Source: an uncultured Alphaproteobacteria bacterium
GTDB lineage: Bacteria > Pseudomonadota > Alphaproteobacteria > JAGOMX01
Length of the DNA stretch: 64,000 nt
Assembly: GCA_963780985.1 (NCBI GenBank)
Contig: CAWAEF010000003.1
Coordinates: forward strand, 110,693 to 174,692
Direction: 5' to 3'
Shown here: positions 709 through 27,683 of the stretch, piece after piece
Layout: each line of letters opens with the position of its first letter
Numbering within the stretch: position 1 is the first letter of the stretch
Program-made: the position numbers and the translations under genes
The notes under the pieces: generated by a model
Seen by the model: only the letters and a program-made list of their open reading frames with translations
Databases searched by the model: none
What the model was told of the DNA's origin: nothing

Positions 709-733
709 AACCCCTCAATTAAGAACCAACGAG

Positions 734-5158: not shown

Positions 5159-5394
5159 TCGAGACTCCTTTGTTATTATTAAGAGACCATTTCAAAACCA
5201 CATTTCACCTCTTCACTTGTGGAAGAGGTCCGGAGCGAAGCTTAGGGGTGAGGGGTACTAACAAGCAGTATTTATACCCCTCACCCGGCCTTCGGCCGAC
5301 CTCTCCCACAAGGGGAGAGGTGCTTCTAAACCGCCAAATGGAGTGTTTTGAAATGGTCATGTTAAAACACATTATAGACAAAGCCCCTGCAGAG

Positions 5395-6441: not shown

Positions 6442-6489
6442 GGTTATCAGACTATCAGGAACTGCAACACTTTGCCATCATCCCGCATG

Positions 6490-7800: not shown

Positions 7801-8190
7801 TTAATGTCTCAAAGGAGGCTCCGTAGACAGGGTGACATCAACCCGCAAATGCTCGAAGGTAACCTGTGGCATAATCTCACCTGTCTTTTTACGCTTCAGC
7901 CTAACGAGCCCATAGCGTTCCATTGTCCGCAATGTGCGCGATAAGTTGCTCTTATGGCGGCCTGACAGCTCAGACAACTCGGTCATTGACTGAGGCTTGG
8001 TTTGAGCAATAAGCTCGAGTAATAATTTGTTAGGAGTTGAAAGAACTTGTGCCAGAGACTCCAATGAATTAAACCAAATCTTAGGCTCACTGGCCGTGGG
8101 CTTATGCTCGCCCCGTGCGATAGCCATAGTACGGTTCCAAATGTCATCATAAGAGGCAATGCCAACCCGCAGAATATGTACGTTTCTCAT
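7801..8190 (-). CDS. Winged-HTH (MarR-like) DNA-binding protein, possible antitoxin-like partner of the upstream small gene.
   Basis: HTH segment MTELSELSGRHKSNLSRTLRTMERYGLVRL. The coding region directly abuts the upstream small ORF (2 nt apart). Confidence 0.4.
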   Translation of the reverse strand: MRNVHILRVGIASYDDIWNRTMAIARGEHKPTASEPKIWFNSLESLAQVLSTPNKLLLELIAQTKPQSMTELSELSGRHKSNLSRTLRTMERYGLVRLKRKKTGEIMPQVTFEHLRVDVTLSTEPPLRH

Positions 8191-8191
8191 C

Positions 8192-8534
8192 TTAACTGTT
8201 CCTTCTCATGATACGCTCAACGTCCTTCCGAAAGTCTTCTAAAAGAGTCGCAGCATCCTTGTATTCATATTTAACGATTTTACCGCTCCTATGCATATGA
8301 TCGTGAGTCTTTATCGATGCATTTTTGGGCAGAGCATGAGCATTATCGTATCCTAGCACCCTCTTCTCCCCTGGCGTCGTGAAGGGTGAGAGAATACTTG
8401 ATTCCATATGGCTTTGCCTCATCATTCTGTACCCGTTGAGCTTCGATCTTTATCCAGAATCCACCACCCAATGTTGCGATCATGCCATCTAGCTCGATCA
8501 AAGTTTCAAGCGTGTAATCGCGATGTTCACGCAT
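8192..8534 (-). pseudogene. Small gene split by a frameshift (ORFs 8343..8534 and 8192..8425 overlap in different frames), possibly the toxin-like partner of a two-gene module.
   Basis: Two overlapping ORFs on the same strand whose translations look like one ~110-aa protein interrupted near 8.35-8.42 kb. Confidence 0.3.
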
Positions 8535-8606
8535 ATCTTTATCCTAACACATATATCAGCGGATGATAACTTAAATCTTTTAGAAAATGGACACAACCCT
8601 TTTAAA

Positions 8607-11354
8607 CTAAGCCTCAGCCCAAGTCTGACCCACCGCGGAATCTACCAGAATTGGTACCTTTAGCTCAGCAGAATTTGCCATAATAGGCCTGATCAGGTCG
8701 ATGGTTGCTTCGACCTCGTTGTCGGGGACTTCGAATATGAGTTCGTCGTGGATTTGTAGTAGCATTTTTGCGGCCAGGCCTGTGTCTTTGAGGGCTTGAA
8801 CGCTTCGGATCATGGCTTTTTTGATTAGGTCTGAGACGCTGCCCTGCAACGGTGCATTGATGGCTGCTCGCTCGGCAAAGCCGCGGCGGGAGGGGTTTTG
8901 GGCATTGATCTCGGGGATGAAGCACTTACGACCAAACAGGGTCTTCACAAAGCCAAACTCGTGGGCGATTTTTTTCTGCTCTTCCATGTAACGCTCAATG
9001 CCGGGATAGCGTTCCAAATAGTCCTGAATATGGCGTGCAGCATCGGATCGTGGTATGCGCAGTTGCCGGCTGAGGCCGTGGGCGCTGATGCCATAGATAA
9101 TCCCGAAGTTAATGACCTTTGCGCGATTACGCAGATCGCTATCCACCTGGTCCAGCGGCACACCGAATACTTCCGATGCGGCCATTTTGTGGATGTCCAG
9201 ATTGTGATGAAAAGCGTCCTGCAACTGAGGAATATCAGCCATGTGGGCCAAAAACCGCAGCTCGATTTGGGAATAGTCGAGAGATAGTAACTTACTCCCA
9301 GGATTGGCCTCAAATGCATCGCGAATCTTGCGGCCTTCTTCAGAGCGTACGGGGATATTCTGCAGGTTCGGATTATTGGACGACAACCTTCCCGTAGAGG
9401 TCACCGTCATCCCAAACTGGGTGTGAACCCGTCCGGTTTTGGGATTAATTTGATGCACAAGCGCATCGCTATAGGTGCTTTTCAATTTCGATAAATGCCG
9501 CCAATCAAGGATGAGGATAGGTAGGTGATGCCCCTGCACCGCCAGGTCTTCCAGGACCTCCGCCCCTGTAGAATGAGCACCGGTCTTGGCGCTTTTGCGG
9601 CCCTTTTCCATGTCCATTTCGTCAAACAGCACTTCTGCCAGCTGTTTAGGAGAACCGATATTAAACTGACGCCCTGCGGCTTCGTAAATATCCTTTTCGA
9701 TCCGGGCTATGCGAGCACCGAAGTCTTTACTGATGTCCTTGAGCTTTTGCAAGTTTATGCCGATACCACAGTATTCCATATCCGCCAGAATCTTAATCAT
9801 AGGGCGGTCTAGGGTTTCATAGATGGTCTGCTGATGTTCTTTTATTATCCGGGATTTCAGAACCGTATAAAGGCGACCCGTTATATCCGCGTCTTCGGCC
9901 GCATATGTGCAGGCGGGCTCCAGTTCTACCTCATCAAAACGCAGCTGAGTCTTTCCTGATCCCGTTACGTCCTTATAAGAAATCGTCTGATAGTCGAAAT
10001 AAAGCTTCGCCAGCTCATCCATACCATGGCCATGAGAGACCCCATCCAGTACATAAGACATAACCATGGTGTCATCAATGGGAGAAACCTCAATGCCGTA
10101 GCGCCTAAGGACCAGCATGTCGTATTTAAGGTTCTGGCCGATCTTAAGGATACTCGGATCTTCCAAGACCGGTTTCAACTGATCTATCGCCTGTTGGAAG
10201 GGTATTTGCGTAACGGACTTGCCCGCTTTGCCTTGATCAAACAGATCACCATTTCTGACCTTGTGAGCAAGAGGTATATAACACGCCTCACCAGACTTTA
10301 AAGACAGGGAGACACCCACCAGCTCAGCCATCATGGGATCCAGGGATGTGGTCTCCGTGTCCACAGACACATGACCGACCTCATTAATGCGGGTAATCCA
10401 CGCCTGAAGCGCCTCAACGGTCTGTACCAGCTGGTAATCGGCTTTTTCTGTTGGCGCCACTTCTATATTATTGGCACTCAGCTTGAATCCACGCTTTTCA
10501 AGGCGCGCTTTGACCCCATTAAAACTCTGAGCATCCAAAAACCGCGTTAGTTCGTCTACGTCAGGCTCTTTAAAGCTAAAGTCTTCTATGGTTTGGTCAA
10601 CGGGTACATTATTTTCTAGGGTCACTAATTGGTAACTTATGCGGGCACTCTCCGCATGCTCAAGCAAGCGCTCTCGGCGCTTAGGTTGCTTAATCTCATT
10701 TGCCCTGGCCAGCAGGTTCTCTAGGTTTCCGTATTCAAGTATCAGTTCCGCTGCGGTCTTCACGCCGATACCTGGCACCCCTGGAACATTGTCCGAGGTA
10801 TCTCCTGCTAGCGACTGAATATCTACAACTTTGTCGGGTGTAACTCCAAACTTTTCGATTACTTCTGGCACACCAATGGGGCGATTGCGGATAGGGTCAA
10901 ACATAACAACTTGATCATTAACCAGCTGCATCAAGTCCTTGTCGGAGGAAACAATGGTCACCTCCATCCCCTGCTCTACGGCTTTTCTGGCATAGGTTGC
11001 AATCAGGTCATCGGCCTCAAATCCAGGCATTTCAATCATCGCTACGTTAAAGGCCTTACAAGCCTCACGCACCAGGCCGAATTGCGGGATAAGCTCGTGG
11101 GGCGTTTCCTCGCGATTGGCTTTGTAATCCGCATATATATCGTTACGAAAAGTCTTGCGCGCGCTATCAAACACGACCACAATGTGGTCGGCTTTCATAT
11201 CCATGATGAGACGGATGAGCATATTGGTAAAACCAAGCACCGCGTTTATCTGAACGCCATCAGGACGTGTAAGCGGCGGCAAAGCATGAAAAGCACGGAA
11301 GATGAAGCCTGAGCCATCAACCAAATAGAGGTGATTTTGATGATTGTTTGTCAT
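8607..11354 (-). CDS. polA: DNA polymerase I.
   Basis: The full 5'-3' exonuclease, 3'-5' exonuclease and Klenow polymerase domains are present, with motifs LYLVDGSGFIFRAF, DYSQIELR and QIHDELIFE. The likely start is the internal Met (MTNNHQ...) at 11354 rather than the 11417 ORF start. Confidence 0.93.
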   Translation of the reverse strand: MTNNHQNHLYLVDGSGFIFRAFHALPPLTRPDGVQINAVLGFTNMLIRLIMDMKADHIVVVFDSARKTFRNDIYADYKANREETPHELIPQFGLVREACKAFNVAMIEMPGFEADDLIATYARKAVEQGMEVTIVSSDKDLMQLVNDQVVMFDPIRNRPIGVPEVIEKFGVTPDKVVDIQSLAGDTSDNVPGVPGIGVKTAAELILEYGNLENLLARANEIKQPKRRERLLEHAESARISYQLVTLENNVPVDQTIEDFSFKEPDVDELTRFLDAQSFNGVKARLEKRGFKLSANNIEVAPTEKADYQLVQTVEALQAWITRINEVGHVSVDTETTSLDPMMAELVGVSLSLKSGEACYIPLAHKVRNGDLFDQGKAGKSVTQIPFQQAIDQLKPVLEDPSILKIGQNLKYDMLVLRRYGIEVSPIDDTMVMSYVLDGVSHGHGMDELAKLYFDYQTISYKDVTGSGKTQLRFDEVELEPACTYAAEDADITGRLYTVLKSRIIKEHQQTIYETLDRPMIKILADMEYCGIGINLQKLKDISKDFGARIARIEKDIYEAAGRQFNIGSPKQLAEVLFDEMDMEKGRKSAKTGAHSTGAEVLEDLAVQGHHLPILILDWRHLSKLKSTYSDALVHQINPKTGRVHTQFGMTVTSTGRLSSNNPNLQNIPVRSEEGRKIRDAFEANPGSKLLSLDYSQIELRFLAHMADIPQLQDAFHHNLDIHKMAASEVFGVPLDQVDSDLRNRAKVINFGIIYGISAHGLSRQLRIPRSDAARHIQDYLERYPGIERYMEEQKKIAHEFGFVKTLFGRKCFIPEINAQNPSRRGFAERAAINAPLQGSVSDLIKKAMIRSVQALKDTGLAAKMLLQIHDELIFEVPDNEVEATIDLIRPIMANSAELKVPILVDSAVGQTWAEA

Positions 11355-11667
11355 ATAGTTGGAATAGCACAGCTGGAAAGAAAGGCAAGAGGAAAAATGT
11401 AACTCCCCAGCTAGCACGTCATCTACGTGCGAAAGCCTGCGCTCCGGTGCTCACGTACCCAAAAGTACGCTCCGCTCCGGTGCTCGGCTTTCGCACGTAG
11501 CTAACGCACTATCTGAAGAGTTGCCCGTAACTGCCCTGGGCAGTTACAGGAAGATGGGGAATTTGGGTAAGAAAATTCATCTAGTTTTCAGAGCAAAGCT
11601 AGTTACTGAAATTATTTGACATATTTATTCTCTTCCAGTATTTTGTCAGTAAGTATAGGATATTATT

Positions 11668-12903
11668 ATGAAGTATATTGCATTTATCATTATGATTTTT
11701 ACGTTACCCTTGGCTCATGCTAGCCAGGGAGTATCTGTTGACCCCAACGCCCAAGAAGAAGCGGCTCGCCAGCGCGCACAGGCTCGAAGAGAGCTCAACC
11801 AAGGACTTGCAGAGAACCTGCGGCCACCCAAGAGCAAGCCACAATTAAAACATCTTTGCCAATTACAAGCCATGGAGCTAGACCCCCATTGGACATTTCA
11901 AGGAATGGCTACTTTCTTGGATGTCCAATATCTCTTCCTTGGCAATCTGAACTTGGCGACACTGCCTTCCTCACTTACCCAGCTTAAAAAGCTTGTAACA
12001 CTGGATTTATCAGACAACCGCCTTACAGAAACCCCCTCCTGGCTAACAATGCTCAAAGTATTGGATGAGCTAAGCCTAAATCACAACGAGTTAGACACGA
12101 GCAAAGACTTCCTTAAGGGAGCAAAACACGTAAGAAAGCTGCATCTAAATGGAAACGGCTTCACACAAGTTCCGACCGCTCTTGATGGCATGACGAAACT
12201 GGTAGTCATCGATCTGAAGGATAATAAAATAGAAGAGATTCCAGCCTTTATAAGTAATCTCCCGCTGAGAGGTCTATGCCTTGCGAATAACATGATCGAA
12301 GAACTTCCCGCGCATATGTCACAGATGAGAAACCTTAGAACTCTAGAACTGCAATCAAATTCTTTGCGCTCACTACCAAACTTCCTGTTGAGTCTAGCTA
12401 ATTTAGTTTACGTAGATGTTAGTAACAACAAATATTTAGTGCAAAATAAGACTGCTGAAGCGCTAAGACTACAAGGCAAACTCGATATGACCCAGCAGGT
12501 TGCCACGCAACTTGCTTCAAAAGCGACAAATAATATGGTCGCTACAGTTCAGAACAAGCCCCAGACCCAGGCACCGAGAGCAACGACGGAGCTGAAAGCA
12601 GCCGAGAAAATCAAGCAGCAAGCAGTTGCAAGCACTCCTCAAAAAAGGCCGCGGCCCTCCAAAAAAGACAGCCCAGCCACTGACTTGGATCTAACGCTGG
12701 TGGAGGGCAAAATCGACTCTGTGGCAAAAATCCTCTCGGACGTACAACCTGACCAGAGATTATTAATAGCACTGACTGCTGCAAATCTCCCAAAAAGAAA
12801 CAGCGATTCGACTATATATAATACATTGATCGCCTTGGGAATCGATAATGTCACCGCAGAAAAGATGATGAAGCAACTGCCCAAAGATAAGCAGAATAAG
12901 TAA
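11668..12903 (+). CDS. Secreted leucine-rich-repeat (LRR) protein, eukaryotic-like effector candidate.
   Basis: Signal peptide MKYIAFIIMIFTLPLAHA. About ten LxxLxLxxNxL repeats, for example LVTLDLSDNRLTETP and LRTLELQSNSLRSLP. Confidence 0.75.
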   Translation: MKYIAFIIMIFTLPLAHASQGVSVDPNAQEEAARQRAQARRELNQGLAENLRPPKSKPQLKHLCQLQAMELDPHWTFQGMATFLDVQYLFLGNLNLATLPSSLTQLKKLVTLDLSDNRLTETPSWLTMLKVLDELSLNHNELDTSKDFLKGAKHVRKLHLNGNGFTQVPTALDGMTKLVVIDLKDNKIEEIPAFISNLPLRGLCLANNMIEELPAHMSQMRNLRTLELQSNSLRSLPNFLLSLANLVYVDVSNNKYLVQNKTAEALRLQGKLDMTQQVATQLASKATNNMVATVQNKPQTQAPRATTELKAAEKIKQQAVASTPQKRPRPSKKDSPATDLDLTLVEGKIDSVAKILSDVQPDQRLLIALTAANLPKRNSDSTIYNTLIALGIDNVTAEKMMKQLPKDKQNK

Positions 12904-12913
12904 TTAAACCTGA

Positions 12914-15053
12914 CTACCCCTTAGCGCGATCGACGCTGCTGATGTGGGATGAAGATCGCAGCGCACCTATAATATTGTTCAGGTGAGATATATCGGTAAC
13001 TTCCACATCAACGATAACGTCGAAGAAGGTCTCCGTTCGGTGGGTTATCTTCAGGTTTAATATGTTACCGCCATTTTTGCCGATCAGGGTCGTCAGGGCT
13101 GCAAGGCTGCCCAGCTTGTTATAGATGGTAATCCTTAGGCGCGTTACATACTTGTCCTCGACACTGGATTCATCAGACCAGCCCACATCCAACCAACGAT
13201 CAGGCTCATCTGCGTATCGTTGCAGGGTATCACAGTCTTCCGTATGCACAGTCACACCACGGCCTGTTATCACAATACCGACAATTTTGTCACCGGGTAG
13301 AGGGTGACAACAACCTGCATAGTGCACCGCCATTCCTGGAATAAGTCCTTTGAGCGAGACTTTACCTTCCGTGTGGGTCTTTTTATCCGACCATTCTTCA
13401 GGTGTCTTGGTTCGCTTATCAGAGACCAGTCTTTCAGGGTGCAGCACCCGGATAATTTCAGAAACCGTACGTTGTCCTTCACCCAGAATCGAGTATAGAT
13501 CCTCGATAGATTTACAACCCAACTTGCCCAGATTTTCAGTCAGAGTCGCCTCATCAAATACGAGCTTTTCGGCTTTGAAAGTCTTTTGCAGTATGGTCTG
13601 CCCCAGCGCCACAAACTCATGGCGCTTTTGGGTGCGGATGTACCGGCGGATGGCTGATCTCGCCTTACCCGTGACCGCATAGCGTTCCCATGTGGGTGAA
13701 GGCGTTTGTGCCTTGGAGGTGGTGATCTCCACCTGGTCACCATTATGGAGCACGTACGCAAAGGCACCATACGCCCGTTTATTTTGGCGCCTACGCAATG
13801 ATTGCCCACAGCGCTGTGCACCGCATAAGCAAAGTCGATGGGTGTGGCCCCACTAGGCAGGGAGATCAAATCACCCTTGGGCGTAAAGCAGAACACCTGA
13901 TCCTGGAACATTTCCAGCTTGGTGTTTTCCAAAAACTCTTCTGGATCTGAAGCATTTTCAAGGATATCCAACAGCCCACGCAGCCATTTATAACCGGAAG
14001 AAGCCTCATCTACTCTCCCGCCTTGTTTATACCGCCAGTGAGCAGCCACACCGTAGTCATTGACCTCATGCATATCCTTGGTACGGATTTGTATCTCAAT
14101 ACGATACCCTTTCGGACCGATGACGGTTGTGTGAAGAGACTGGTAGTTATTGGGTTTTGGCGTTGATATGTAATCTTTAAATCGCCCCGGTATCACCGAA
14201 TAAGCCCCATGCAGGTAGCCAAGTGCCTGATAGCATTCCGACACACCGTTAACAACTACCCGGAACGCGACAATGTCCGACAACTGTTCGAACGTCACGT
14301 TTTTATTACGCATCTTTCGCCAAATGGAATAAGGGGATTTTTCCCGACCAGAGATCTTGACTTCCATCCCGTTGTTTTCAAACAGGTCCTTTAAATCCTT
14401 GGTAATAACGTTGACTGAGTCTTCATCTTCTTCCCGCAGGAACTTGAGACGGGCCAGAATAGAGTCCCTGGCATCGGGATTTAGTTCTCTAAAAGCCAGA
14501 TCCTCAAGCTCGTCCTTCATTTTGTGCACGCCGATGCGCTGGGCCAGCGGCACATAAATTTCCATGGTCTCCCGCGCTTTACGGGCGCGCTTTTCAGCCG
14601 ATGGCAAGTAATGTAGCGTCCGCATGTTATGCAGGCGGTCCGCCAGTTTAATAAGCGACACCCGAATATCATTGGACATAGCCAACACGAGTTTACGAAA
14701 GTTCTCCGCTTGCTCTTGCTGGTGAGACTCCCATTTGATCATGGAAAGTTTCGTAACCCCATCCACTAGCTTGCGCACGTCTTTGCCGAAGTGTTTTTCA
14801 ATATCATCAAGACTGACGTGGGTGTCCTCAACGGGTCATGCAACAATGCCGTAACGATAGAAGCCGTATCTAGCTTCATTTCCGTCAGGATGCCAGCAAC
14901 TTCCAAAGGATGAGAAAAATAGGGATCACCGGACGCACGGGTTTGCGACCCATGGGCCTTCATGGCAAAGACATATGCTGAGTTTAAAGCATCCTCATCC
15001 GCATTTGGATCGTAGGCTTTTACTCGTTCTACAAGCTCATACTGTCTGATCAT
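12914..15053 (-). pseudogene. spoT: Bifunctional (p)ppGpp synthetase/hydrolase SpoT/RelA homologue interrupted by two frameshifts.
   Basis: Three consecutive same-strand ORFs: 14766..15053 (HD hydrolase N-terminus), 13540..14778 (synthetase/TGS) and 12914..13798 (C-terminal ACT region). The N-terminal junction needs a 1-nt correction at ~14830 (catgaccCgttgaggac should be catgacAccgttgaggac to read HDTVEDTHVSLDDIEKHFGKDVRKLVDG). The second junction lies near 13.76-13.80 kb. Confidence 0.8.
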
Positions 15054-15325
15054 TGGTTAATACACTAATCCCTGTGAAGATCTAGATCCAATTTAATGAT
15101 ATCAAATGGTTACTAAAATAGAAATGATTATTGTTTAGAAACCGATTCCGATGCCGGACCGAGCCGTCTTGCATGTGCTGTCCTTCACTTTTGAAATACG
15201 TCCGAAAGTGAAGAAAGCACAAACTATTGAGTCGTAAACTTTTGGTGAGTTATGACCAAGGCACCCAGGGTGGCGTAAATCCCCTAGTTAAGTGCCTAGC
15301 CTGCACGTGTTTGAGACACCCCGGA

Positions 15326-17250
15326 TCATGTAACCGATTTTGTATTATCAGTTCCTCTGGCGGGCATAGTATCCTTCACTTCATCGTAGAACCTGTAGTG
15401 TCCCTTGCCGGATTTCTTGGCTGCGTACATGGCCGTGTCACTGCTAGTTAGAAGCGCCTCCGGTGTGATACCGTCTTGGGGAAATACTGATATGCCTATA
15501 CTTACACCAAAGGGGACTTTTTTCCCGTTATAATCATAATGATCACCAACAGCCTTAAGTATACGATCGGCAATGTGCGTAAGATCTTCCCGGCTACATG
15601 GAGTTCTGAGGATGATTGCAAATTCATCCCCTCCCAAGCGCGCAATGACGTCTGGAGTACGCACGCACTTTTTGAGGGTATCGCTGATGTATATAGCACC
15701 TGATCCCCCACATCATGGCCCAGAGTATCATTGATTGCCTTAAATCCATCCAGATCTAAGAACATCAAACCAAAGCGTTCTAGAGTGGGCCCATTGGCTG
15801 CAAAGGAAGACGTCAAGTTGGCCTCAAAAGAAGCCCTGTTGGCAAGACCTGTTAACGCGTCATGCATAGCCAGATACGTCAGACGATCTTCGTCTTGCTT
15901 GCGGTTTGTCACGTCCTTATGCACTGAAACGAGGCCGCCATCTGGGGTTGCGCTATTGACGATCTCAATCCAGCGACCATCCCGTAACCGAACCAGATAT
16001 GGCGCAGACAACTTCTGGCGTGCCTCATTCAGGCTTACCCAGTTGTCTACATCTTGCGCCGTCGCAGCCTGTGCCTGACCTAACTGGCGACGTTCTTCGA
16101 AATAGACGCCTAGCTCCATGTTCTTACGCAGCAATTGCTCGTAAGTGAATCCATGATTGCCCAGCCTCTCAACACCAGGATAGAGTCTCTGGAACTGTTC
16201 ATTACAGAGATTCAAGCGTTCGTCGTGATCAAAAACAGCAAAACCATCGTCAATACTCTCAATGGCTGTTTCTAGCTTTTTACGGGCCATCTCAAGCTTG
16301 TCCAAGTTCTGTTGCTCTCGATCTCGTAAATTCTTCTTTTCAAGACATGCCTTTATACGGGCATGCAATACGACAGGGTTAAAGGGCGTGGGCAGGTAGT
16401 CTTCTGCGCCAACCTCAATACAGCGTACGATACTATCCACCTCACTGAGCGCGGAAATCATCAGCACGGGTATGTTTTTTGTAGCCGGATCACTCTTCAA
16501 ACGTGTTAGCACCTCATACCCGTTCATAACCGGCATCATGATGTCGAGTAGAATCAGATCCACCGGTTTTTGAGACACCACTTCGAGACCAGCAGCACCG
16601 TCTTCTGCGGTGATAACTTTAACACCGTAACGAGATAGACGTCGACGCAGGATCTCGCGGTTGTATGGGGAATCGTCTATGATCAAAACCGTGTTGTCGG
16701 CAAATTGCTCTCCGTAAGGCAAGTTGCTCTCAACCAGACCTTGGTTGTATGTCAGGTTTTCGTTGGTGCTGAATTCCTCGTTTTGAATGAGGTCATCCAA
16801 GCGAAGGCCATCAATGACGGGAATCAAGTTGTTGGCGTGTTCAATTATAACACCAAAGCCCTTGCTAAAATTAGCCGCAGCTTCTGTGCTTTCATCCCCT
16901 AATTCCTCTTGGATAAGTTCACTATAGCCTAAGATCGCACCCACCTTTGCGCGCAGGTCATGACGGGCTTCTTTCATATGCTCTTCGGTCAGATCATTTG
17001 CCTGAATCCAGTTAGCAATAGAAGTTCGGTCCTTTTCTACCAATTCAACAAATTGATCGCAAGCAGTGAGGATACTGTTCAGATCCTCTTCAAAATTTGG
17101 AAATTCTCTACCAGCCTCCACGGCTTGTACCACGAGAGGTTTTATGTACTCTACTGCACGCAAGATTTTCGTAAAAATCTGCTCGACTTTGAGGGCGGCT
17201 TGTTCACCACGGACTGCGTTCATTTCATATGCTATCCCATTACCAGACAT
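15326..17250 (-). pseudogene. Response regulator receiver-PAS-GGDEF (diguanylate cyclase) protein with a frameshift inside the GGDEF domain.
   Basis: 15502..17250 encodes the REC domain (LIIDDSPYNREILRRRL...DLILLDIMMP), a PAS-like segment and the start of GGDEF. The GGDEF core (RLGGDEFAII) continues in the overlapping ORF 15326..15664 in another frame. Confidence 0.7.
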
Positions 17251-17270
17251 GTGTTATTTTTAATCCTTTC

Positions 17271-17663
17271 CTATTTAGTATTATCGTTTTCTGAACTCTT
17301 TGACCCCAGAAATGCTTCCATCTTGGATAAAAGGCGATCCAGGTCGATTGGCTTGGTGTCATAATCCTCACACCCAGCCTCCAATGCCCTCTCGCGATCA
17401 CCAATGAGAGCATGTGCTGTCAACGCGATGATGGGAATTTTATTCGTGTTCGCATTCTTTTTAATTATGCGCGTAGCTTCCCAGCCATCAAGGACAGGCA
17501 GGCTCATATCCATAAGGATTAAATCCGGCATACCATCGCTTGCCATGCGAACCGCTTGTTCTCCATCCACTGCTATCTGGACATCATAACCACGACGCAT
17601 CAAGCGGCGGGAAAGCATGTCCCGGTTCATATCATTATCTTCTACCAGAAGGATTTTCGACAT
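17271..17663 (-). CDS. Single-domain CheY-like response regulator.
   Basis: KILLVEDNDMNRDML...DLILMDMSLPVLDGWE with the conserved Asp and Lys residues, 130 aa. Confidence 0.8.
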   Translation of the reverse strand: MSKILLVEDNDMNRDMLSRRLMRRGYDVQIAVDGEQAVRMASDGMPDLILMDMSLPVLDGWEATRIIKKNANTNKIPIIALTAHALIGDRERALEAGCEDYDTKPIDLDRLLSKMEAFLGSKSSENDNTK

Positions 17664-17763
17664 TTGCCCTACCCTAGATTAATTTTAGTCGTATTTGATT
17701 TAACTTGTTGATTCTTACCTAAGAAAATTGGTACCTCTTTTTCTAAGTTAATTAAAGCAAAAA

Positions 17764-19405
17764 ATGATTATAAAAACATTAATAATATGGAATGATTCTC
17801 AAATGTCAAAAGAGACGGTTAACCCAGGAATTCCGCAAATCTTGATGGCTAAAGGCTTTCTGTCAAATGATCAATTCGCAATTGTCAAAAAGGAGCGGGA
17901 AAAAACCGGAAAAAATTTTTCGCAGACGCTGGTTGCTTTGGGTTTTATCAGCGAGCAATCCCTCAATCAGATCGTTGCGGAGCATGGCGGCTTTACGGCG
18001 CTCGATCTTTCTTCCACATCCCTGGATCATGAGCTAATTAAAACCTTGCCAAGACACATCGCGGAGCAAAGGCAAATGATACCGGTGTCCATGGAGGGCA
18101 GTAACCTTTTGCTGGCATTGGTGGATGTATATGATTTGCGGGCGCTGGATCAGGCTCGGAAGTATTTTCCCCATTGTACCCTGCAACCAGTTCTGACCAA
18201 CAGCGCACAACTGAAAGCTGCCATCGATCGTTATTACGGCTATGAACTTACCGTCGACAAATTGCTGAAGGAAATTGAGAGCTCAAATGTGGCCCTCGAG
18301 GGCGAAACAACTTGGGTCAGTCCTGTTGTCCGTCTTGTTGAAACGCTTTTGATCCATGGGATTAAATTGGGAGCCTCCGACGTTCATTTTCAGCCAGAGG
18401 AGAGCTTTGTTCGCGTAGATATCGCATCGATGGCATCTTGCAACAGCACTGCGTCTTCCACAAGTCCTATTGGTCCGCTATCTGTGTGCGCCTCAAGGTT
18501 ATATCTGATCTAAATCTAGCTGAATCACGACGACCCAAACGGGACGCTTAAGCCTGATGTACGGCTTGCGTGAGGTCGACTTTCGCGTTTCTTCACATCC
18601 TACGGTCTATGGCGAAAGCATCGTCTTGCGTATCCTAGACAAACAACATTCCATCAGGTCTTTGGAGCATCTAGGCTTCAACCCGGAACAAGTGGCGAGC
18701 CTTATCCAGCAGATCAAGCAGCCTCAGGGTTTGTTTATTATTACGGGCCCAACAGGATCGGGTAAGACCACCACCCTTTACTCGATTTTGCAGTACCTTA
18801 ACAGTTCCTCACGCAACATTATGACCTTGGAGCAGCCTGTGGAATACCGGCTGCCTATGATTCGACAGTCAGAAATCCGGGAGATGAGCAAGACCACCTT
18901 TGCCGACGGTGTCAGGAGCCTTTTGCGGCAGGATCCGGACATCATCTTCATCGGCGAGGTGCGGGATGAGGATACGGCTCAGATGGCCCTGAGAGCGGCT
19001 ATGACGGGGCATCTCGTGTTTACGACCTTGCATACCAATGATAGCGCCAGCGTCATTTCTCGCCTTCGGGATCTGGGGCTCAAACCCGGCATGGTGGCGG
19101 ATTACCTCGTGGCCTCGGTCTCCCAGAGATTGCTACGGTTGCTTTGTGCGAATTGTGGAGGAGATGGTTGCCAGGACTGTCATCACACTGGATTCAAGGG
19201 ACGGCAAGCAGTGGGGGAGATACTGGTCTTTAATGCGACCCTTAAAGACCTGGTTGCAGAGGGCGCATCCCCTAGCCTTTTGCGCAAAGCCGCAACGGAA
19301 CAGGGGTTCAAGCCTATGGCAGCGGTGGCGCAGGACATGATTGACAAGGGACTCACCACAAGGGATGAAGTGGATTTCCAGCTGGGGGCTGCTCATGGGG
19401 AATAG
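17764..19405 (+). pseudogene. GspE/PilB/MshE-family secretion ATPase with a T2SSE_N domain, interrupted by frameshifts near 18.43 and 18.54 kb.
   Basis: The N-terminal T2SSE_N-like domain is in 17764..18513. Walker A GPTGSGKTTT and the C-terminal tetracysteine CANCGGDGCQDCHHTG are in 18557..19405. The conserved RIDG.../AESRRP segments read in a third frame between the two ORFs. Confidence 0.75.
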
Positions 19406-20599
19406 GCTTTACACCTATAAAGCGGCCGCCCATGGGGGAGAGATTATTCGCGGCAGCGCCCTTGCAACGGATGCTCAAGCCCTTTACCAGCAGTTGCGGG
19501 ACCAAAACCATTTTCTTATCTCCACCAGGGTCAAAAGAGGTCTGTTGACGGGCTTATTTAAGACCAAGGTCACGCCTCAGGAACTCTTTGATTTTTGCCT
19601 ACATATGCAATACATGGATCAGGCTGGGGTACCGTTGCTGGATGCGCTCCTGGATGCGCAAAGCTCGAGCACCAAGCTGAAACCTGTGCTGGCAGATATG
19701 ATCACACAGATTAAAGGTGGCAGGATGCTATCGGAGACGATTGCTAGCCACAAAGATACTTTCCCGGATATGTTTCAACCCATTATCTATCTGTCCGAGC
19801 AATCGGGTCAATTGGCCAAGGTTTTAAAACCCTTTATGAGCACCTTTCCTGGAAGGAACAGAATAAGCGCCAGCTGAGCAAAAGTCTGCAATACCCAGCG
19901 ATGGTCTTTGGCCTGATCTGTGTGGTGATGTGGATGATGTCGGTGGTGGTGGTGCCACAAATGTTTGATCTGATCAAGATGAGCGGCGTTGAAGTTCCCT
20001 ATTCTACCAGGTTGCTGTTAGATATAAATCAGGGGCTTGTGCAATGGGCACCACGAGCGTTAATGCTTGGCGCCTGTGGTCTGTTGTTGATCATGGGCCT
20101 GCGTTTTCTTTCCTTGAGTCATAAACTGCGCCAGGATCGGCTGTTATTGAAGGTCCCATTTATCGGACAGTTGTTAGTCAAGCGCGATTTGGCCATGTAT
20201 CTTCACTTTTTTCATGTGTGCCTTACGTCTCATATAGACTTGTTGGAGTGTATGGATTATGGCCGTAAAGCTGTGCGTAATTGTTGGCTTCAGGAAAGGC
20301 TTGCGGCTTGTGCCAAAGCCGTGAGAGAAGGTTCCACCTTGTCCAAAGCGATGCAAAATGCGGGTATTTTTGATGCCTCTACCTTGCGCATGGTTCAGAT
20401 CGGCGAGATCACAGGGCATCTGACAGCGCTTTTGGCCGTGCTGGAAAATTATCATGTGCGTGATTTAAAACGACAAATCGAGCGTTTTCTCACCTATCTT
20501 CAGCCTGGCTTGTTGGGTATAATTGGCCTGATGTTAATCTGGATTGTGGTGGGGATATTCTATCCTCTATACGACCAGTTGTTGGTAATAGAAGGGTAA
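19398..20599 (+). pseudogene. GspF/PilC-family inner-membrane platform protein with a frameshift in an A-run near 19829-19832.
   Basis: The N-terminal half is MGNRLYTYKAAAHGG...QSGQLAKVLK. The C-terminal half is MVFGLICVV.... The alternative frame reads KTLYEHLSWKEQNKRQLSKSLQYPAMVFGL continuously if one extra A is inserted in gttttaaaaccc. Confidence 0.75.
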
Positions 20600-20602
20600 G
20601 GC

Positions 20603-21841
20603 ATGCCGCAAGGGACGCTCGTCATAGGCGATCATCATATAAGCTACCATGATTGTCGCGGCGCAAGAGTTGTGGTTCAAGGTCCGGACGATATCCCTGT
20701 GGGGACATCATTACGGGTATTGTTAAATTTCTCGGATCTGGATGTATATGCTGAGTCTATACCGGCCATGGGCAGATGGGACCGCTATGGATTATCTCGG
20801 ATGCGATCCCGGCAGGAATCGACAGCGGTGCTCAAAGGCCATCGTATGTTTAAGGACAGCCTGGTCGAGGTGAGTTGCCCCCTTACGGATGACTTGCGGC
20901 ATCTGCTTGAGGCCCTGGTAAACGGAGGCGTGAGGATCACACGTATGGAGCCTTTGTTAATAACCCCTCTCACACCACATCCTCATACCCTAGTGGTGAG
21001 CGATCATGGCGCGGATGGTATTCGGCATACCTTGTTCCAAGAATCGAAACCTCTCTTCACCAGACTAACTTCCGCACCTGTTGAAGTTATGACCACGATG
21101 ACCTACTTGCGGAACCATTTTCAGCTGAATGCCACTTATGTGCAGTGTCATATAACGCCACAGGATTTTGAGCTACTTGTTAAGCGCGAAGATATGGAGC
21201 TCGGTCTCTATCCCTTGGTGGATTTATCGGATAACAAGGCGTATGCATTTTCATTGCCCGCTTTTGTTCTAGAAGCTAATAACCGTTACCGGGCAAAAAT
21301 AGCCAATCGTCTGGGTGCTGTGGCGGCTGTTGTCTTGTTTATGGTTGCAGGGTGGCAATACTATGACTATCAGGGCCTACAGGATCGCCTTGAAGGCCAG
21401 CAGCAAAAGGTATCTGGTCTCAGCGAGAAACTCACGCTTCTTAAGGCGGATCTGTCCTTGGATAAATTGTTACCTCAATCCTATAAGGACAAGATGGCAG
21501 AACCATCGCCTATTGATCTGTTGCGGCATATAAGCAGTATTATGAGTAATGATATGACCCTGTCTGCGCTGAAATGGGAAAACACCCCTCAGGAAGAACG
21601 CTTGTTGCTGCAGGTGCGGATTGTTGCTCAGGATGAAGACTTAGACCAAAACGTGGATGTGGTTCAGGATTTCAAAACCAATCTGGCGAGTGCGCTGCCA
21701 GGGTTTGTGGTGGAGGCTCCGTCTCTGCCTCATGGGTCTGGGGATCAGGAGACTTTTACGGGAAGCACCAACGCTCAGGACTTGACCCTGGCTGGGGATA
21801 GGGAAAAGGCTACTATCCAACTGACTAGGAAAAAATCATGA
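20603..21841 (+). CDS. Bitopic membrane protein with GspL/PilM-PilN-like architecture (cytoplasmic domain, one TM, periplasmic domain).
   Basis: 412 aa with a single TM LGAVAAVVLFMVAGW at ~aa 230. It is operonic and its start overlaps the pilC-like stop. Confidence 0.4.
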   Translation: MPQGTLVIGDHHISYHDCRGARVVVQGPDDIPVGTSLRVLLNFSDLDVYAESIPAMGRWDRYGLSRMRSRQESTAVLKGHRMFKDSLVEVSCPLTDDLRHLLEALVNGGVRITRMEPLLITPLTPHPHTLVVSDHGADGIRHTLFQESKPLFTRLTSAPVEVMTTMTYLRNHFQLNATYVQCHITPQDFELLVKREDMELGLYPLVDLSDNKAYAFSLPAFVLEANNRYRAKIANRLGAVAAVVLFMVAGWQYYDYQGLQDRLEGQQQKVSGLSEKLTLLKADLSLDKLLPQSYKDKMAEPSPIDLLRHISSIMSNDMTLSALKWENTPQEERLLLQVRIVAQDEDLDQNVDVVQDFKTNLASALPGFVVEAPSLPHGSGDQETFTGSTNAQDLTLAGDREKATIQLTRKKS

Positions 21842-22362
21842 GGAACATATTTATTCAATCGGGGTTAGTAGTTATCTTGGTTCTGGCTGGCCTTGGGGGA
21901 AATGCCTATTTATACCAAGCCCGGGAGGAAGCGCGTGGGGAGCTTGCTGGGTTAGATCAATCTTTTCAGCAAAAGCAGGCTTTGATAAAGCTCGCGAGTC
22001 AAAAACCAGATAAGCCATCCATAATCGGCCATCGTCTGGCCATTCCTTGCAATCGCTTATCGGTCAGCGAGGACTTTCAACAGCTGAGCAAAACCTTACG
22101 CTTGGCCCGCCTTGATTTTCAGATCTCGCCTGAGACAACGGTTGAGAATGCCTTTTCAGAATCTATCGTTGAGCTCAAATTCCAGAATCAGTCGGATCAA
22201 CCACTGTTTCATATGATTGCCCACCTGATGGACGAGTTTCCTGGCCTGGTGTATCCCATGGAGATCGTTATGTGGCGAGAGCCTTCTCAAGATAAACCGC
22301 TGATATCTGGCACCTTTCGTTTTTCCTGGTTAAAAGGTGTCACGGAAAAGGTGGCGTCATGA
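21838..22362 (+). CDS. GspM/PilO-like bitopic protein.
   Basis: N-terminal TM IFIQSGLVVILVLAGLGG followed by a coiled-coil-like segment. The gene overlaps its neighbour by 4 nt. Confidence 0.35.
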   Translation: MRNIFIQSGLVVILVLAGLGGNAYLYQAREEARGELAGLDQSFQQKQALIKLASQKPDKPSIIGHRLAIPCNRLSVSEDFQQLSKTLRLARLDFQISPETTVENAFSESIVELKFQNQSDQPLFHMIAHLMDEFPGLVYPMEIVMWREPSQDKPLISGTFRFSWLKGVTEKVAS

Positions 22363-22712
22363 AAAGATTCCTGATTTTAGTTGCCCTTTCTTCCCCGGCT
22401 TTCGCTGCGGAGCCCTTCTCTCTTTTCCTGACCGAAGATGAACAATCGCGTTTTAACAAAGATGTAAACATAGGCGCCCTGACCCACTCATCCAACCGGG
22501 TGTCTTTAAAAGCCATCATGATGATGGATGAAGCCAACTGGACCATATGGCTGAACGAACACAAAATCACGCCAGATTCCTGTCCGGAACATGTTCAGGT
22601 CGTGTCAGTCTCACCCGCTGAGGTCGAGCTGATTTGGAGCAAAGAAATGGAGCCACGGACCATATCATTGAAGATCAATGAATCCGTTGATTTGGAGAGT
22701 CTTGACCCATAA
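22359..22712 (+). CDS. Small secreted protein (PilP/GspC-like position in the cluster).
   Basis: Signal peptide MKRFLILVALSSPAFA. Overlaps the previous gene by 4 nt. Confidence 0.35.
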   Translation: MKRFLILVALSSPAFAAEPFSLFLTEDEQSRFNKDVNIGALTHSSNRVSLKAIMMMDEANWTIWLNEHKITPDSCPEHVQVVSVSPAEVELIWSKEMEPRTISLKINESVDLESLDP

Positions 22713-22732
22713 GAATATGCGGGTAGCTTTTT

Positions 22733-22754
22733 AGGCCTAAGAGGCCTGTTTTGA
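22733..22754 (+). terminator. Putative rho-independent terminator (aggcctaagaggcct followed by gtttt).
   Basis: A 6-bp GC-rich stem followed by a T-rich tract 20 nt after the stop at 22712. Confidence 0.35.
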
Positions 22755-22979
22755 GTTCTGTGGAAATCATTTCCACATTTATTGGTAGGATGCTGAGGAT
22801 TTCACCGCATAATCGGACATTTTGATTTCTGCAGCACTCGAATATATCCTTTTCATGACTTTCATCTTCCATTCTTGTTCAGATTCTTATTTTTGCCTTC
22901 TGCAGAAAACAAAATATTGCTTTTGGAGGCAGGATGTGGTATCTATGTAGATACAGACCTCAAACATCGGAAATAATTA

Positions 22980-23216
22980 ATGGTCGAAATTTTCGGATCA
23001 AAGGACCTAGGAAACATCATCAGGGACTTGCGCAAAAGGGCAGGTTTATCCCAGGAAGCACTTGCGGAACTTGCGGGACTCAGCCGTACGGCTGTGCAGG
23101 CGCTGGAGGGTGGCAAGGAAACGTGCAAATTAATTACTGTGTTTAAGGTCGTGAAGATTTTGAACATTCATGTTCACTTAAGCCACCCACTGATTAGGGA
23201 TATGCCCCATGAATGA
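22980..23216 (+). CDS. hipB: XRE-family HTH protein, HipB-like.
   Basis: LRKRAGLSQEALAELAGLSRTAVQALEGG is a classic HTH_XRE. The gene lies immediately upstream of the split HipA-like genes and overlaps them. Confidence 0.75.
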   Translation: MVEIFGSKDLGNIIRDLRKRAGLSQEALAELAGLSRTAVQALEGGKETCKLITVFKVVKILNIHVHLSHPLIRDMPHE

Positions 23217-23565
23217 ACGTATCCCTACAGAAGGGAACTACAAGCGTCGCTTGCTTATCACATGTCATGGGGTCCCGTGCGGGTATTTTATTCAAACCGA
23301 GAACAATGAATATTCCTTTACCTACTTTGAAGATTATCGGGGCCCTCCCATATCTTTAACCATGCCGGTGCGGTCTGAACCTTACACCTTTAATCGGTTT
23401 CCGCCCTTTTTTGACGGATTGTTGCCAGAAGGCATACTGCTGGAGGCTCTCATTCGGCAGAATAAAATTGATGCCCATGATTACATGGCGCAGCTAGAGG
23501 CCGTTGGAGCCGACATGGTGGGGGCGGTAACTGCCTTGCCTGATTCTATGAAAAAGGGGAAATGA
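23209..23565 (+). CDS. hipS: HipA N-terminal-subdomain-like protein, HipS-like.
   Basis: FPPFFDGLLPEGILLEALIRQ matches the HipA N-terminal motif FFDNLLPEG. 118 aa. Its stop overlaps the next start in ATGA. Confidence 0.65.
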   Translation: MNERIPTEGNYKRRLLITCHGVPCGYFIQTENNEYSFTYFEDYRGPPISLTMPVRSEPYTFNRFPPFFDGLLPEGILLEALIRQNKIDAHDYMAQLEAVGADMVGAVTALPDSMKKGK

Positions 23566-24518
23566 TGCGCTGCCCCATTACTTACGAGGAACTTCTTCCC
23601 GGGGAAGAGAAATATAGCGCGGCTGGCTTAAAACGCTTGTCGCCGAATCTCAAGACCTTGAAAGATTTTCCCTATACCATGGAAGAACAGCTGCGAGAGG
23701 CAAATCGCTTAGCTTCTAAACTCTCCATTCAAGGCGTTCAACCCAAACTGAGTGTCGTGCTTGATGTAACCCATGAAACATTTAAGATCACCGATAAGGG
23801 CGGAACCTTTATCCTAAAACCACAAAACCCCCAATGGAATAGCCTGCCCGAAAATGAGGACCTGACCATGCGCCTGGCTGCGCTGGTTGGGATTGAGGTG
23901 CCTCTGCATGGTTTGCTGTACTGCAAAGACGGCGCCTTGAGCTATTGGATCCGCCGCTTTGATCGTCCATCCTTACGAAATCCGACAAACGTAAAGCTAA
24001 GCCTGGAAGATTTTGCCCAGCTGAGCCAAGAAGACCGCCAAACAAAATATAACAGCTCCATGGAAAAGGTGGCCAAAGTCATCCGCGAGTTCTGCTCCTT
24101 CCCCATTATGGAATTAGAAAAGTTGTTTAGGTTAACCATATTTAACTTTGTGGTCGGGAATGAGGACATGCACCTGAAGAATTTTTCGTTAATCACCAGG
24201 GACAACCTGATATCCCTATCCCCGGCCTACGATTTACTTAATTCCACTCTCGCCATGGGCACTGGAACACGGGAGGAAATAGCTTTATCTCTTAATGGGA
24301 AAAGGCAGAAACTGAAGGCAGAAGATCTGATAGATACCTATGGTATTGAACGATTAGAGCTACGCCCTAGTACCGTCAACAAGATCCTGCAGACGATAAT
24401 TGAGGCTCAGCCTCTATGGATAGAACTTATAGACCGAAGCTTCCTGTCGCAAGCGCAAAAAGAGGGCTATAAATCCATTATCCATGAGAGGTTGGAACGG
24501 CTCTTGCGGAACAAGTAA
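23562..24518 (+). CDS. hipT: HipA-family kinase core, HipT-like toxin.
   Basis: P-loop-like GVQPKLSV and catalytic motif VGNEDMHLKNFSL, which matches GNxDxHxKN of HipA. 318 aa. Confidence 0.75.
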   Translation: MMRCPITYEELLPGEEKYSAAGLKRLSPNLKTLKDFPYTMEEQLREANRLASKLSIQGVQPKLSVVLDVTHETFKITDKGGTFILKPQNPQWNSLPENEDLTMRLAALVGIEVPLHGLLYCKDGALSYWIRRFDRPSLRNPTNVKLSLEDFAQLSQEDRQTKYNSSMEKVAKVIREFCSFPIMELEKLFRLTIFNFVVGNEDMHLKNFSLITRDNLISLSPAYDLLNSTLAMGTGTREEIALSLNGKRQKLKAEDLIDTYGIERLELRPSTVNKILQTIIEAQPLWIELIDRSFLSQAQKEGYKSIIHERLERLLRNK

Positions 24519-26549: not shown

Positions 26550-26689
26550 AATTTTTCTCCTATGCTATTGAAGGCAAACTCCTGTCTTCGGAATTCAAGA
26601 TACTCCATTGGCGTATATTTTGAAGTCTAATCTCAGCAAAATACAGGGCCTACTCATGAAAACGAAGCATATGAAGGGAAACACGTAGC

Positions 26690-26826
26690 TGCCAGCTTGC
26701 CTCCCCTTGATGCGCAGGGGTCCAGCCCTTAAAATGTGCTGCGTAGCAGCTCCGAAGAAAATACAGAGTCGCTACGCGACGCATTTTGCGCTGGACCCCT
26801 GCTTTCGCAGGGGAGACAAGCTGGAG
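26690..26826. repeat. MITE-like palindromic element, family B, copy 1 (~135 bp with nested hairpins).
   Basis: ccagcttgcctccccttgatgcgcaggggtccagccc...gagtcgctacgcgacgcattttgcgctggacccctgctttcgcaggggagacaagctgg. Three more copies lie at 34.1, 35.4 and 41.7 kb. Confidence 0.65.
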
Positions 26827-27676: not shown

Positions 27677-27683
27677 CGGGCAC

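Follow-up and report, generated by a model that had tools for sequence, protein, structure and literature searches.

Six 1-nt deletions split four genes between positions 12914 and 20599 of the window, the 64,000-nt stretch of alphaproteobacterial DNA analysed here. These are the genes for SpoT/Rsh, a response-regulator/PAS/GGDEF diguanylate cyclase, a T2SSE ATPase with an N-terminal MshEN domain, and a T2SSF platform protein. Three further genes in the window, encoding TumE-family, ThyX and 951-aa proteins, are also affected by single-base indels. All coordinates below are window positions, and the exact lesion sites in these first four genes were fixed by alignment to the 99.1% identical contig L084. 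The features are as follows.

8192–8534, minus strand: TumE-family gene, 113 aa when repaired, with an extra T at 8364 (T to TT)
12914–15053, minus strand: SpoT/Rsh gene in three ORFs, with 1-nt deletions at 14835 and 13753 (Pfam, tblastn against the L001 orthologue, alignment to L084 and L097)
13753: SpoT lesion, C in the window and CC in L084 and L097 (GGAGCA[C]CGTACG)
14835: SpoT lesion, lone T missing outside any homopolymer (CAACGG[T]GTCATG; alignment to L084 and L097)
15216: intergenic lesion between the SpoT start and the GGDEF stop, lone G missing (GAAGAA[G]AGCAC; alignment to L084 and L097)
15326–17250, minus strand: response-regulator/PAS/GGDEF diguanylate cyclase gene, split by a deletion at 15695 (AA to A; Pfam, alignment to L084 and L097)
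17271–17663, minus strand: single-domain response regulator gene, 130 aa, intact
17803–19405, plus strand: T2SSE/PilB-like ATPase gene with MshEN N-terminal domain, deletions at 18417 (lone C) and 18536 (lone A; Pfam)
19395–20599, plus strand: T2SSF/PilC-like platform gene, split by a 1-nt deletion at 19816 (CCC to CC)
20542–20544: GAT, an in-frame 3-nt difference from L084 and a real strain polymorphism; its presence in contig L083 serves as an internal control
33054–34019, minus strand: ThyX (Thy1) gene, with a G inserted at 33119 and a G deleted at 33203
37528–40384, plus strand: gene for a 951-aa protein, with a G deleted at 38201 (GGG to GG) and an A inserted at 38413 and at 38415

Split genes and single-base lesions

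The original prediction that four neighbouring genes are split was confirmed by their ORFs, by interrupted Pfam profiles and by alignment. SpoT is read from three minus-strand ORFs (14766–15053, 13540–14778 and 12914–13798), which in sum carry the HD_4 (HD hydrolase), RelA_SpoT, TGS, AH/RIS and ACT domains in long-RSH order according to Pfam, with HD_4 interrupted between profile positions 51 and 69. Its N-terminal break, predicted to be a 1-nt loss outside a long homopolymer, is indeed the lone T at 14835. Repaired SpoT differs from that of L084 by one amino acid and shares 88% identity with P0001 and P0002, both intact; relatives at 66–68% identity include metagenome-assembled genomes (MAGs) labelled Holosporales and Caedibacter acanthamoebae. 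The diguanylate cyclase is divided between ORFs 15502–17250 and 15326–15664, its GGDEF profile being interrupted at 63/70, and the repaired protein has the same amino acids as the L084 protein P0241.

The N-terminal part of the T2SSE ATPase lies in a frame +1 ORF (17764–18513) up to 18417, its middle in a frame +3 stretch (18417–18539), and its C-terminal part in a frame +2 ORF (18557–19405). An intact 534-aa homologue, P0121, is 99% identical. The T2SSF gene is divided between ORFs 19341–19877 and 19901–20599. At its lesion, both L083, a contig of the same strain from run ERR11630400, and L084 read TTGGCCCAAGG, where the window reads TTGGCCAAGG. The missing base is thus the C at 19816, which rules out a T-run as its site and contradicts the earlier suggestion that the gene could be repaired by adding an A to the run at 19829–19832.

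Every break in these four genes is a net loss of one nucleotide (frames 3 to 2 to 1, or 1 to 3 to 2), and a single re-inserted base per site (13753, 14835, 15695, 18417, 18536 and 19816) is enough to restore full-length proteins without internal stops. The repaired SpoT, GGDEF, T2SSE and T2SSF proteins are 713, 641, 534 and 401 aa long, compared with 711, 618, 547 and 406 aa for the orthologues in L001 and 713, 641, 534 and 400 aa for those in L084.

Outside this block, a small split gene expected at 8.2–8.5 kb proved to be the TumE-family gene. Its extra T at 8364 is absent from five other assemblies (L084/L086, L087, L088, L089 and L090), all of which encode 113 aa. The split gene predicted at 37.5–40.4 kb was likewise borne out, and is full length (950–951 aa) in three other assemblies (P0250, P0251 and P0253). 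Its breaks do not lie in an A-run and a C-run as had been proposed; they are the loss from GGG at 38201 and the two single-A insertions. The 951-aa protein has a hydrophobic N-terminal stretch and no Pfam match. Contig L085 carries a single 951-codon ORF for it, of which JGI annotated 867 aa (P0255). The ThyX ORF is cut to 282 aa in the window, and its repaired 321-aa product is identical to that of L085. The two ThyX lesions and the intergenic lesion at 15216 did not figure in the original prediction.

Two other overlapping arrangements were rejected as split genes. The four overlapping same-strand ORFs at 867–4157 correspond in relatives to separate 547-aa and 372-aa genes with a spacer of approximately 530 nt, and the window shows no indels against L091 or L092 over 3–6843. 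The overlapping ORFs 26879–27742 and 27684–28403 are both pseudopilin genes, and an N-terminal methylation motif is present in each.

In total, 13 lesion positions were found (8364, 13753, 14835, 15216, 15695, 18417, 18536, 19816, 33119, 33203, 38201, 38413 and 38415), all of them isolated 1-nt indels, with several genes hit twice. Seven fall within the 6.1 kb of the 13.7–19.9 kb block (six genic lesions and 15216); four single-base insertions (8364, 33119, 38413 and 38415) lie elsewhere. A non-repeated base was lost at four of the seven block lesions (14835, 15216, 18417 and 18536), and the other three sit in runs of just 2–3 bases. The indel load is approximately 0.3–0.45 per kb, with deletions outnumbering insertions by approximately 2:1, and the lesions are mostly outside homopolymers and unevenly distributed along the contig. 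In 48–64 kb, approximately 12.9 kb of ORFs look intact from ORF structure alone, although the coding-region rate predicts approximately four hits there. The region aligned to L084 contains seven coding lesions and one intergenic lesion in sequence that is approximately 90% coding; because one lesion (15216) falls in the small non-coding fraction of the block, coding sequence is not spared. Neither are essential genes, as the probably essential ThyX is hit twice. The motif AGCAC occurs within 6 nt of three of the 13 lesions (uncorrected p 0.003), a value that loses significance after correction for the 512 five-mers examined; a different k-mer also had a better score.

Intact copies and selection

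Comparison with orthologous loci, which the original prediction had put forward as a check, found the genes whole and in the same order in related genomes. Two JGI contigs that are 99% identical to, and collinear with, window positions 7806–24376 and 30062–46887 carry every split gene whole. One of them, L084, is 99.10% identical over 7806–24376 and differs by one base at exactly the lesion sites. The ENA contig L097 is intact at 13753, 14835, 15216 and 15695, and L085 and L099 are intact for ThyX and the 951-aa gene. Whole orthologues in the same order are found in L001 (80% amino acid identity), L084, L085, L097 and L099. The seven repaired proteins (713, 641, 534, 401, 113, 321 and 951 aa) differ from those of the JGI-type strain by 0–19 amino acids.

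A same-strain comparison was provided by Logan contigs of run ERR11630400 (L081, L082, L083 and L087), which cover 12.7 kb of the window and span two of the 13 lesions, 19816 and 8364. Over these 12.7 kb, the contigs and the window differ by only two SNPs and two indels, and both indels (a C lost at 19816 and a T gained at 8364) are lesions of the window that the Logan contigs lack. Apart from 19816, L083 is 100% identical to the window over 2,656 nt. It belongs to the window's strain, since it carries the window allele wherever L084 differs in this span, including GAT at 20542–20544; mismatches between the window and L084 number 14, 21 and 15 in the 20, 21 and 22 kb bins. The extra T at 8364 is also absent from L087, L088 and L090, which have window-type SNPs; in L088 (ERR11563597) and L090 (ENA ERZ27248494) these include the patch at 10092–10215. 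Contig L089 (SRR6960546) lacks the extra T as well, but has JGI-type SNPs at 10092–10215. For 14835, 15216, 15695, 18417, 18536, 33119, 33203, 38201 and 38413/38415, the comparator is the JGI-type strain, which is approximately 1% divergent and makes the argument at those sites indirect; the contigs found for the SpoT, GGDEF and T2SSE lesion regions (L084 and L097) are of this type only.

In the protein collection, split versions of these proteins come only from the 308,464-nt source contig, and other assemblies each contribute full-length or near-full-length versions. Exact look-ups of three fragment ORFs (294, 95 and 249 aa) returned no independent contig with the same frameshift, a weak indication in that it depends on the start-codon call. 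The repaired window-type proteins are absent from the collection as complete genes, as are the partial Logan products from L083 and L081.

The split genes are under strong purifying selection, with no shift of dN/dS toward 1. Those within 8–21 kb differ from L084 by 43 synonymous and eight non-synonymous changes (pN/pS 0.055), and their intact neighbours by 54 and 27 (pN/pS 0.148). ThyX shows five synonymous and no non-synonymous differences, and the 951-aa gene shows 25 and 19 (ratio 0.205).

Origin of the lesions

The frameshifts are very probably single-base consensus errors in this assembly rather than mutations of the organism, since the genes are whole in further assemblies of this bacterium, one of them derived from a run of the identical strain. 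In the bacterium itself, SpoT, the RR-PAS-GGDEF protein, MshEN-T2SSE, T2SSF, TumE, ThyX and the 951-aa protein would then be encoded by whole genes under purifying selection, and the one-base errors would have been introduced into the 308,464-nt contig (NCBI/ENA). The error profile points to a long-read metagenome assembly with low coverage or poor polishing as a possible source. Given the uneven spread of the lesions, such an error model would require coverage or consensus quality to vary locally. The original prediction had offered homopolymer indels in the assembly as one of two readings. Assembly indels are supported, but the homopolymer cause fails for most lesions: it fits only part of them, in short runs of 2–3 bases. 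Strain-mixture SNPs were also rejected as the cause, as 15216 and 15695 have no L084 SNP within 500 nt.

There is a slim chance that minority frameshift alleles exist beside intact ones in the population and that the assembler picked the minority. At least two strains are present in the samples, and their SNPs form a patchy mosaic. In addition, L081 terminates at 13753, the last base common to the deleted and intact alleles, as would be expected if two alleles were each present in at least two reads of ERR11630400. Contig L088, which terminates 1 nt before a SNP cluster, has the same de Bruijn graph branch signature. The window allele is therefore not the sole clean allele in that run, which counts in favour of a consensus error, though a real polymorphism with both alleles present would also fit. 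Noisy reads disagreeing at one base would, however, explain the end of L081 equally well; a rare loss-of-function allele would need to be chosen at approximately 13 independent sites; and the intact allele is the only one that the run's k-mer assembly contains at 19816 and 8364.

Slightly less probable still is the other reading of the original prediction, a genuine and very recent pseudogenisation in the window's strain, in which stringent-response, c-di-GMP and T2SS/T4P-like genes are being lost as in host-restricted bacteria. The Holosporales and Caedibacter acanthamoebae labels among the SpoT relatives point to lineages in which gene decay is common, lesion density is raised in one block of adjoining genes, and five of the block lesions lie outside the same-strain contig coverage. 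This reading does not sit well with the data from the same strain, in which both testable lesions are absent, or with the lack of relaxed selection, pN/pS being lower in the split genes than in their intact neighbours. The bacterial indel-to-substitution ratio is roughly 1:10, and seven indels against eight non-synonymous differences in 7.2 kb are far above it. Moreover, stop codons created by substitution, larger deletions and insertion elements are all absent from the split genes; the probably essential ThyX and an intergenic site are struck in the same manner; and relatives at 99% to 80% identity are all intact with gene order kept. Since the same-strain data directly contradict only two of the 13 lesions, some room is left for real frameshifts at the others. 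It is highly unlikely that the window's strain, or some part of its population, truly carries fresh frameshifts in spoT, the c-di-GMP cyclase and the genes for the T2SS/T4P-like ATPase and platform protein; if it did, an uncultured, possibly protist-associated alphaproteobacterium would have been caught starting to lose its stringent response and surface machinery.

Recoding is able to rescue some frameshifted genes. Programmed ribosomal frameshifting or transcriptional slippage that yields full-length proteins from the sequence as written can nevertheless be dismissed almost entirely here, as no slippery heptamer, prfB-like motif or long A/T run is found at any lesion site, the shift is conserved in no relative (all encode the gene in a single frame), and the same-strain contigs are intact at 19816 and 8364. 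In its favour is the title of a paper, 'Many purported pseudogenes in bacterial genomes are bona fide genes', an excerpt of which states that such pseudogenes could be sequencing or assembly artefacts (PMC11017572).

Consequences and comparison with known systems

If the lesions are consensus errors, the biology of the locus is ordinary and the value of the result lies in quality control. Taken at face value, the contig implies an apparent loss of SpoT, a PleD-like cyclase, a secretion/pilus ATPase and even ThyX, which would distort metabolic and lifestyle inference, for example by making the organism look as if it were undergoing reductive, host-dependent evolution. Protein databases already contain the fragments: P0131 (582 aa), P0247 (408 aa) and P0249 (212 aa), truncated products of this contig, are cluster representatives in the clustered collection, ranked above full-length JGI proteins, so that homology searches retrieve fragments. 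Such calls can be tested cheaply by comparing the contig with k-mer contigs from a run of the same strain and by calculating pN/pS for the supposedly broken genes.

Programmed frameshifts (prfB, dnaX and IS3-family transposases) and homopolymer phase variation resemble the locus in having two overlapping frames on one strand. They differ in their conserved slippery or repeat site and in a shift that is kept in relatives, neither of which is seen in the window. Host-restricted reductive genomes share with it the frameshifting of several neighbouring regulatory and surface-machinery genes, in an uncultured alphaproteobacterial lineage with Holosporales-labelled SpoT relatives. Real decay in such genomes involves relaxed selection, mixed lesions (stops, deletions and insertion elements) and recurrence in independent data, whereas the window has a pN/pS of 0.055, only 1-nt indels, and testable lesions that are absent from same-strain contigs.

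Systematic nanopore errors are classically tied to homopolymers, and the window differs in that most of its lesions lie outside them. Excerpts of two papers describe higher error rates in long-read assemblies that lead to frameshifts, premature stops and pseudogenized genes (Kastor; PMC12007338), and systematic nanopore errors that outlast polishing (Homopolish; PMC8011154). In long-read (nanopore and PacBio CLR) assemblies and MAGs, as in the window, isolated 1-nt indels split conserved genes into adjacent same-strand ORFs, deletions exceed insertions, and short-read or k-mer assemblies of the organism lack the errors.

Split genes and their intact counterparts

An ORF listing combined with Pfam searches bore out the original prediction of split SpoT, GGDEF, T2SSE and T2SSF genes; comparison with close relatives extended it.

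Genes of the split region
Minus strand: RelA/SpoT homologue in three ORFs, 14766-15053 (start of HD_4), 13540-14778 (remaining HD_4, RelA_SpoT, TGS) and 12914-13798 (AH/RIS, ACT)
Upstream of the SpoT homologue: response-regulator/PAS/GGDEF protein in two ORFs, 15502-17250 and 15326-15664, cut in mid-GGDEF
17271-17663: single-domain response regulator, intact, between the split genes
Plus strand: T2SSE ATPase with an MshEN N-domain, two break sites
Plus strand: T2SSF platform protein, cut into two

The nearest genome found, a Baltic MAG (L001), has the same gene order and 80% amino-acid identity in SpoT, and tblastn with its intact orthologues placed a net -1 shift at each break. With one base added at each of six sites, the genes encode full-length proteins free of internal stops. 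A chimeric query bridging the GGDEF and T2SSE breaks picked up P0131, a 582-aa fragment that is the window's own product on a 308,464-nt NCBI/ENA contig, evidently the window's source, and P0121, an intact, 99% identical T2SSE of 534 aa. The latter is encoded on JGI contig Ga0182030_10011821 (L084), from a strain about 1% divergent (the JGI-type strain); L084 runs collinear with the window from 7806 to 24376 and is 99.10% identical to it there. The genes of L084 are all whole (SpoT 713 aa, GGDEF 641 aa, T2SSE 534 aa, T2SSF 400 aa, TumE 113 aa). After repair, the window's GGDEF protein is identical to that of L084 in amino acid sequence, and its SpoT differs at 1 of 713 residues.

The 13 clearest lesions: nine 1-nt deletions and four 1-nt insertions in the window, the first eight found base by base against L084, the others against L085
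8364: insertion, extra T, splits a TumE-family gene
13753: deletion, CC to C
14835: deletion, lone T
15216: deletion, lone G, intergenic
15695: deletion, AA to A
18417: deletion, lone C
18536: deletion, lone A
19816: deletion, CCC to CC
33119: insertion, extra G
33203: deletion, G
38201: deletion, G
38413: insertion, extra A
38415: insertion, extra A

Beyond the first eight lesions, L084 and the window differ by just one indel, GAT at 20542-20544, which is in frame. Window 30062-46887 is matched by another JGI contig, L085, with 99.03% identity. The gene at 37.5-40.4 kb, also predicted to be split, is one 951-codon ORF in L085; the split stands, and its breaks, previously placed in an A-run and a C-run, are the missing G and two extra As at 38201-38415. 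The thyX gene (33054-34019), overlooked in the original prediction, is cut to 282 aa by the lesions at 33119 and 33203, and its repair gives amino acids identical to the 321-aa ThyX of L085. Other indels relative to L085 are mostly intergenic, and several lie amid dense SNPs, as true polymorphism would. An ENA contig, L097, also of the JGI-type strain, has an intact SpoT and all four bases missing from the window between 13.7 and 15.7 kb.

At the left end, zero indels were found relative to relatives' contigs L091 or L092 over window 3-6843. Suspicious ORFs at 867-4157 were considered as a split gene and rejected as two separate genes. Two ORFs that overlap each other, 2434-2817 and 2774-3046, fall inside a spacer of ~530 nt in the relatives' annotation, between a 547-aa and a 372-aa gene (both without a Pfam match), and are probably spurious rather than a split gene.

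Contigs of the same strain

Exact-protein look-ups retrieved same-strain Logan contigs from run ERR11630400: L081 (window 11487-13753) and L082 (16208-17816), both 100% identical to the window, L083 (19740-22395) and L087 (5293-11437). Over 12.7 kb, all differences from the window amount to two SNPs and two indels; the latter are precisely the lesions inside the contigs' spans (19816 and 8364). At the T2SSF lesion L083 reads TTGGCCCAAGG, as against TTGGCCAAGG in the window, so that T2SSF lies in a single frame; L087 is without the extra T at 8364, and TumE is therefore 113 aa. L083 is assigned to the window's strain because it carries the window's alleles at all L084 differences in its span (14, 21 and 15 mismatches in the 20, 21 and 22 kb bins) together with the in-frame GAT. 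It upholds a real indel yet rejects the frameshifting one. The extra T at 8364 is also absent from L088 (ERR11563597) and L090 (ENA ERZ27248494), which have window-type SNPs at 10092-10215, and from L089 (SRR6960546), where these SNPs are JGI-type. The lesions at 14835, 15216, 15695, 18417 and 18536 were judged against the JGI-type strain only, and the argument there is indirect.

The lesions might instead be real polymorphism within the population, for which there is a single positive hint. L081 stops at 13753, the final base before the deleted and intact versions diverge, and L088 exemplifies a Logan contig that stops one base short of a variant at a branch of the graph; the window's allele at that lesion is therefore not a clean single allele in ERR11630400. 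Polymorphism is nonetheless considered very unlikely.

Selection, lesion profile and deposited fragments

Reductive decay of stringent-response and pilus/T2SS genes had been proposed as one reading of the breaks. Relative to L084, the repaired split genes at 8-21 kb show 43 synonymous and 8 non-synonymous differences (pN/pS 0.055), and their intact neighbours 54 and 27 (pN/pS 0.148). For ThyX the corresponding counts are 5 and 0, and for the 951-aa protein 25 and 19 (ratio 0.205). Bacteria usually show roughly one indel per ten substitutions. For seven real indels in ~7.2 kb, the neutral expectation is ~70 substitutions, of which about three quarters would be non-synonymous, together with a few stops; both lineages together show the 8 non-synonymous differences and zero stops. 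Given this pN/pS, the lack of stops and same-strain contigs free of the lesions at 19816 and 8364, decay is not supported, and real, recent pseudogenisation is hardly credible. Programmed recoding is excluded in practice, as a slippery site is absent, the shift is not conserved and all relatives have single-frame genes.

The lesions are isolated single bases throughout, several genes are struck twice, and neither ThyX, probably essential, nor intergenic sequence (one site) is spared, a pattern that fits errors rather than selection-filtered mutations. The frameshifts are very probably an artefact of one assembly. Assembly indels had been the other predicted reading, which holds with a correction: "homopolymer errors" is an inaccurate label, because few lesions fall in runs and these runs are of 2-3 bases. 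No sequence motif was significantly associated with the lesions. Across the 41 kb for which a close reference exists they number ~0.3 per kb, or as many as ~0.45 per kb when isolated intergenic indels are counted. Their density is uneven, with seven within 13.7-19.9 kb, further dense stretches at 32-34 kb and 37.4-38.5 kb, and none across 0-8.3 kb and 40.8-46.9 kb, which points to local variation in depth or consensus quality; at 48-64 kb the ORFs look whole, judged by ORF structure alone. Deletion-biased, patchy, non-homopolymer indels on a 308-kb metagenomic contig would be the product of a thinly covered long-read assembly (compare PMC12007338, PMC8011154 and PMC8103633).

The practical weight of these errors lies in the truncated products, which are deposited as separate coding sequences. 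Three of them, P0131 (window 15502-17250), P0247 (SpoT middle fragment) and P0249 (T2SSF C-terminal fragment), represent their 90%-identity clusters ahead of full-length JGI proteins, and for this reason a homology search with SpoT did not list a full-length SpoT that shares 99% identity with its query.

Strain variation and gene neighbourhood

SNPs relative to the JGI-type strain (L084, 7806-24376) are very patchy, with none at 15-17 kb and 25 per kb at 18 kb. In polA, 16 SNPs are packed into 124 nt (10092-10215), present in some samples and absent in others. The patchiness has the look of recombination between co-occurring strains; contigs of both strain types are present in ENA assembly ERZ27248494. 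At its left end (1-128), L085 corresponds to window 5227-5355 (93% identity) instead of the sequence immediately left of 30062, which indicates either a dispersed repeat or a strain rearrangement at ~30.06 kb.

The MshEN-T2SSE ATPase gene adjoins the response-regulator/PAS/GGDEF cyclase and single-domain response regulator genes (15326-20599). MshEN is a c-di-GMP-binding domain, and the arrangement suggests c-di-GMP control of this secretion or pilus system. At 26879-28403 lie two pseudopilin genes, each with an N-terminal methylation motif. Several toxin-antitoxin-like modules (TumE paired with a MarR/HVO_A0114-like regulator; an HTH protein bearing a HipA N-terminal coupling domain) cluster around 7801-8534 and ~22980-24376, as well as just beyond the window's left edge, where HicA/HicB occur in L091 and L092. 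The 951-aa protein (37528-40384) has a hydrophobic N-terminal stretch and no Pfam match; the two strains differ at 19 of its residues, and it is among the faster-evolving genes here, along with p117, p412 and p174. Close to it, at 42026-47332, is an ORF of 1,768 aa.

A two-piece (permuted) alphaproteobacterial tmRNA is located at 34365-34717 on the plus strand (Rfam RF01849, 236 bits; ARAGORN tag peptide ANFNFKNLAMGQDNFATAAAAA), with no indels inside it relative to L085, and is directly followed by an SspB homologue (34802-35281). Intergenic repeats of ~130-170 nt occur at 26682-26825, 34091-34215, 35414-35553 and 41678-41848, with copies 75-88% identical, and are found in L085 too. A search against Rfam gave nothing above the gathering score for them. 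Each matches its own reverse complement, so the repeats are palindromic and could form a hairpin, and they resemble a REP or MITE element.
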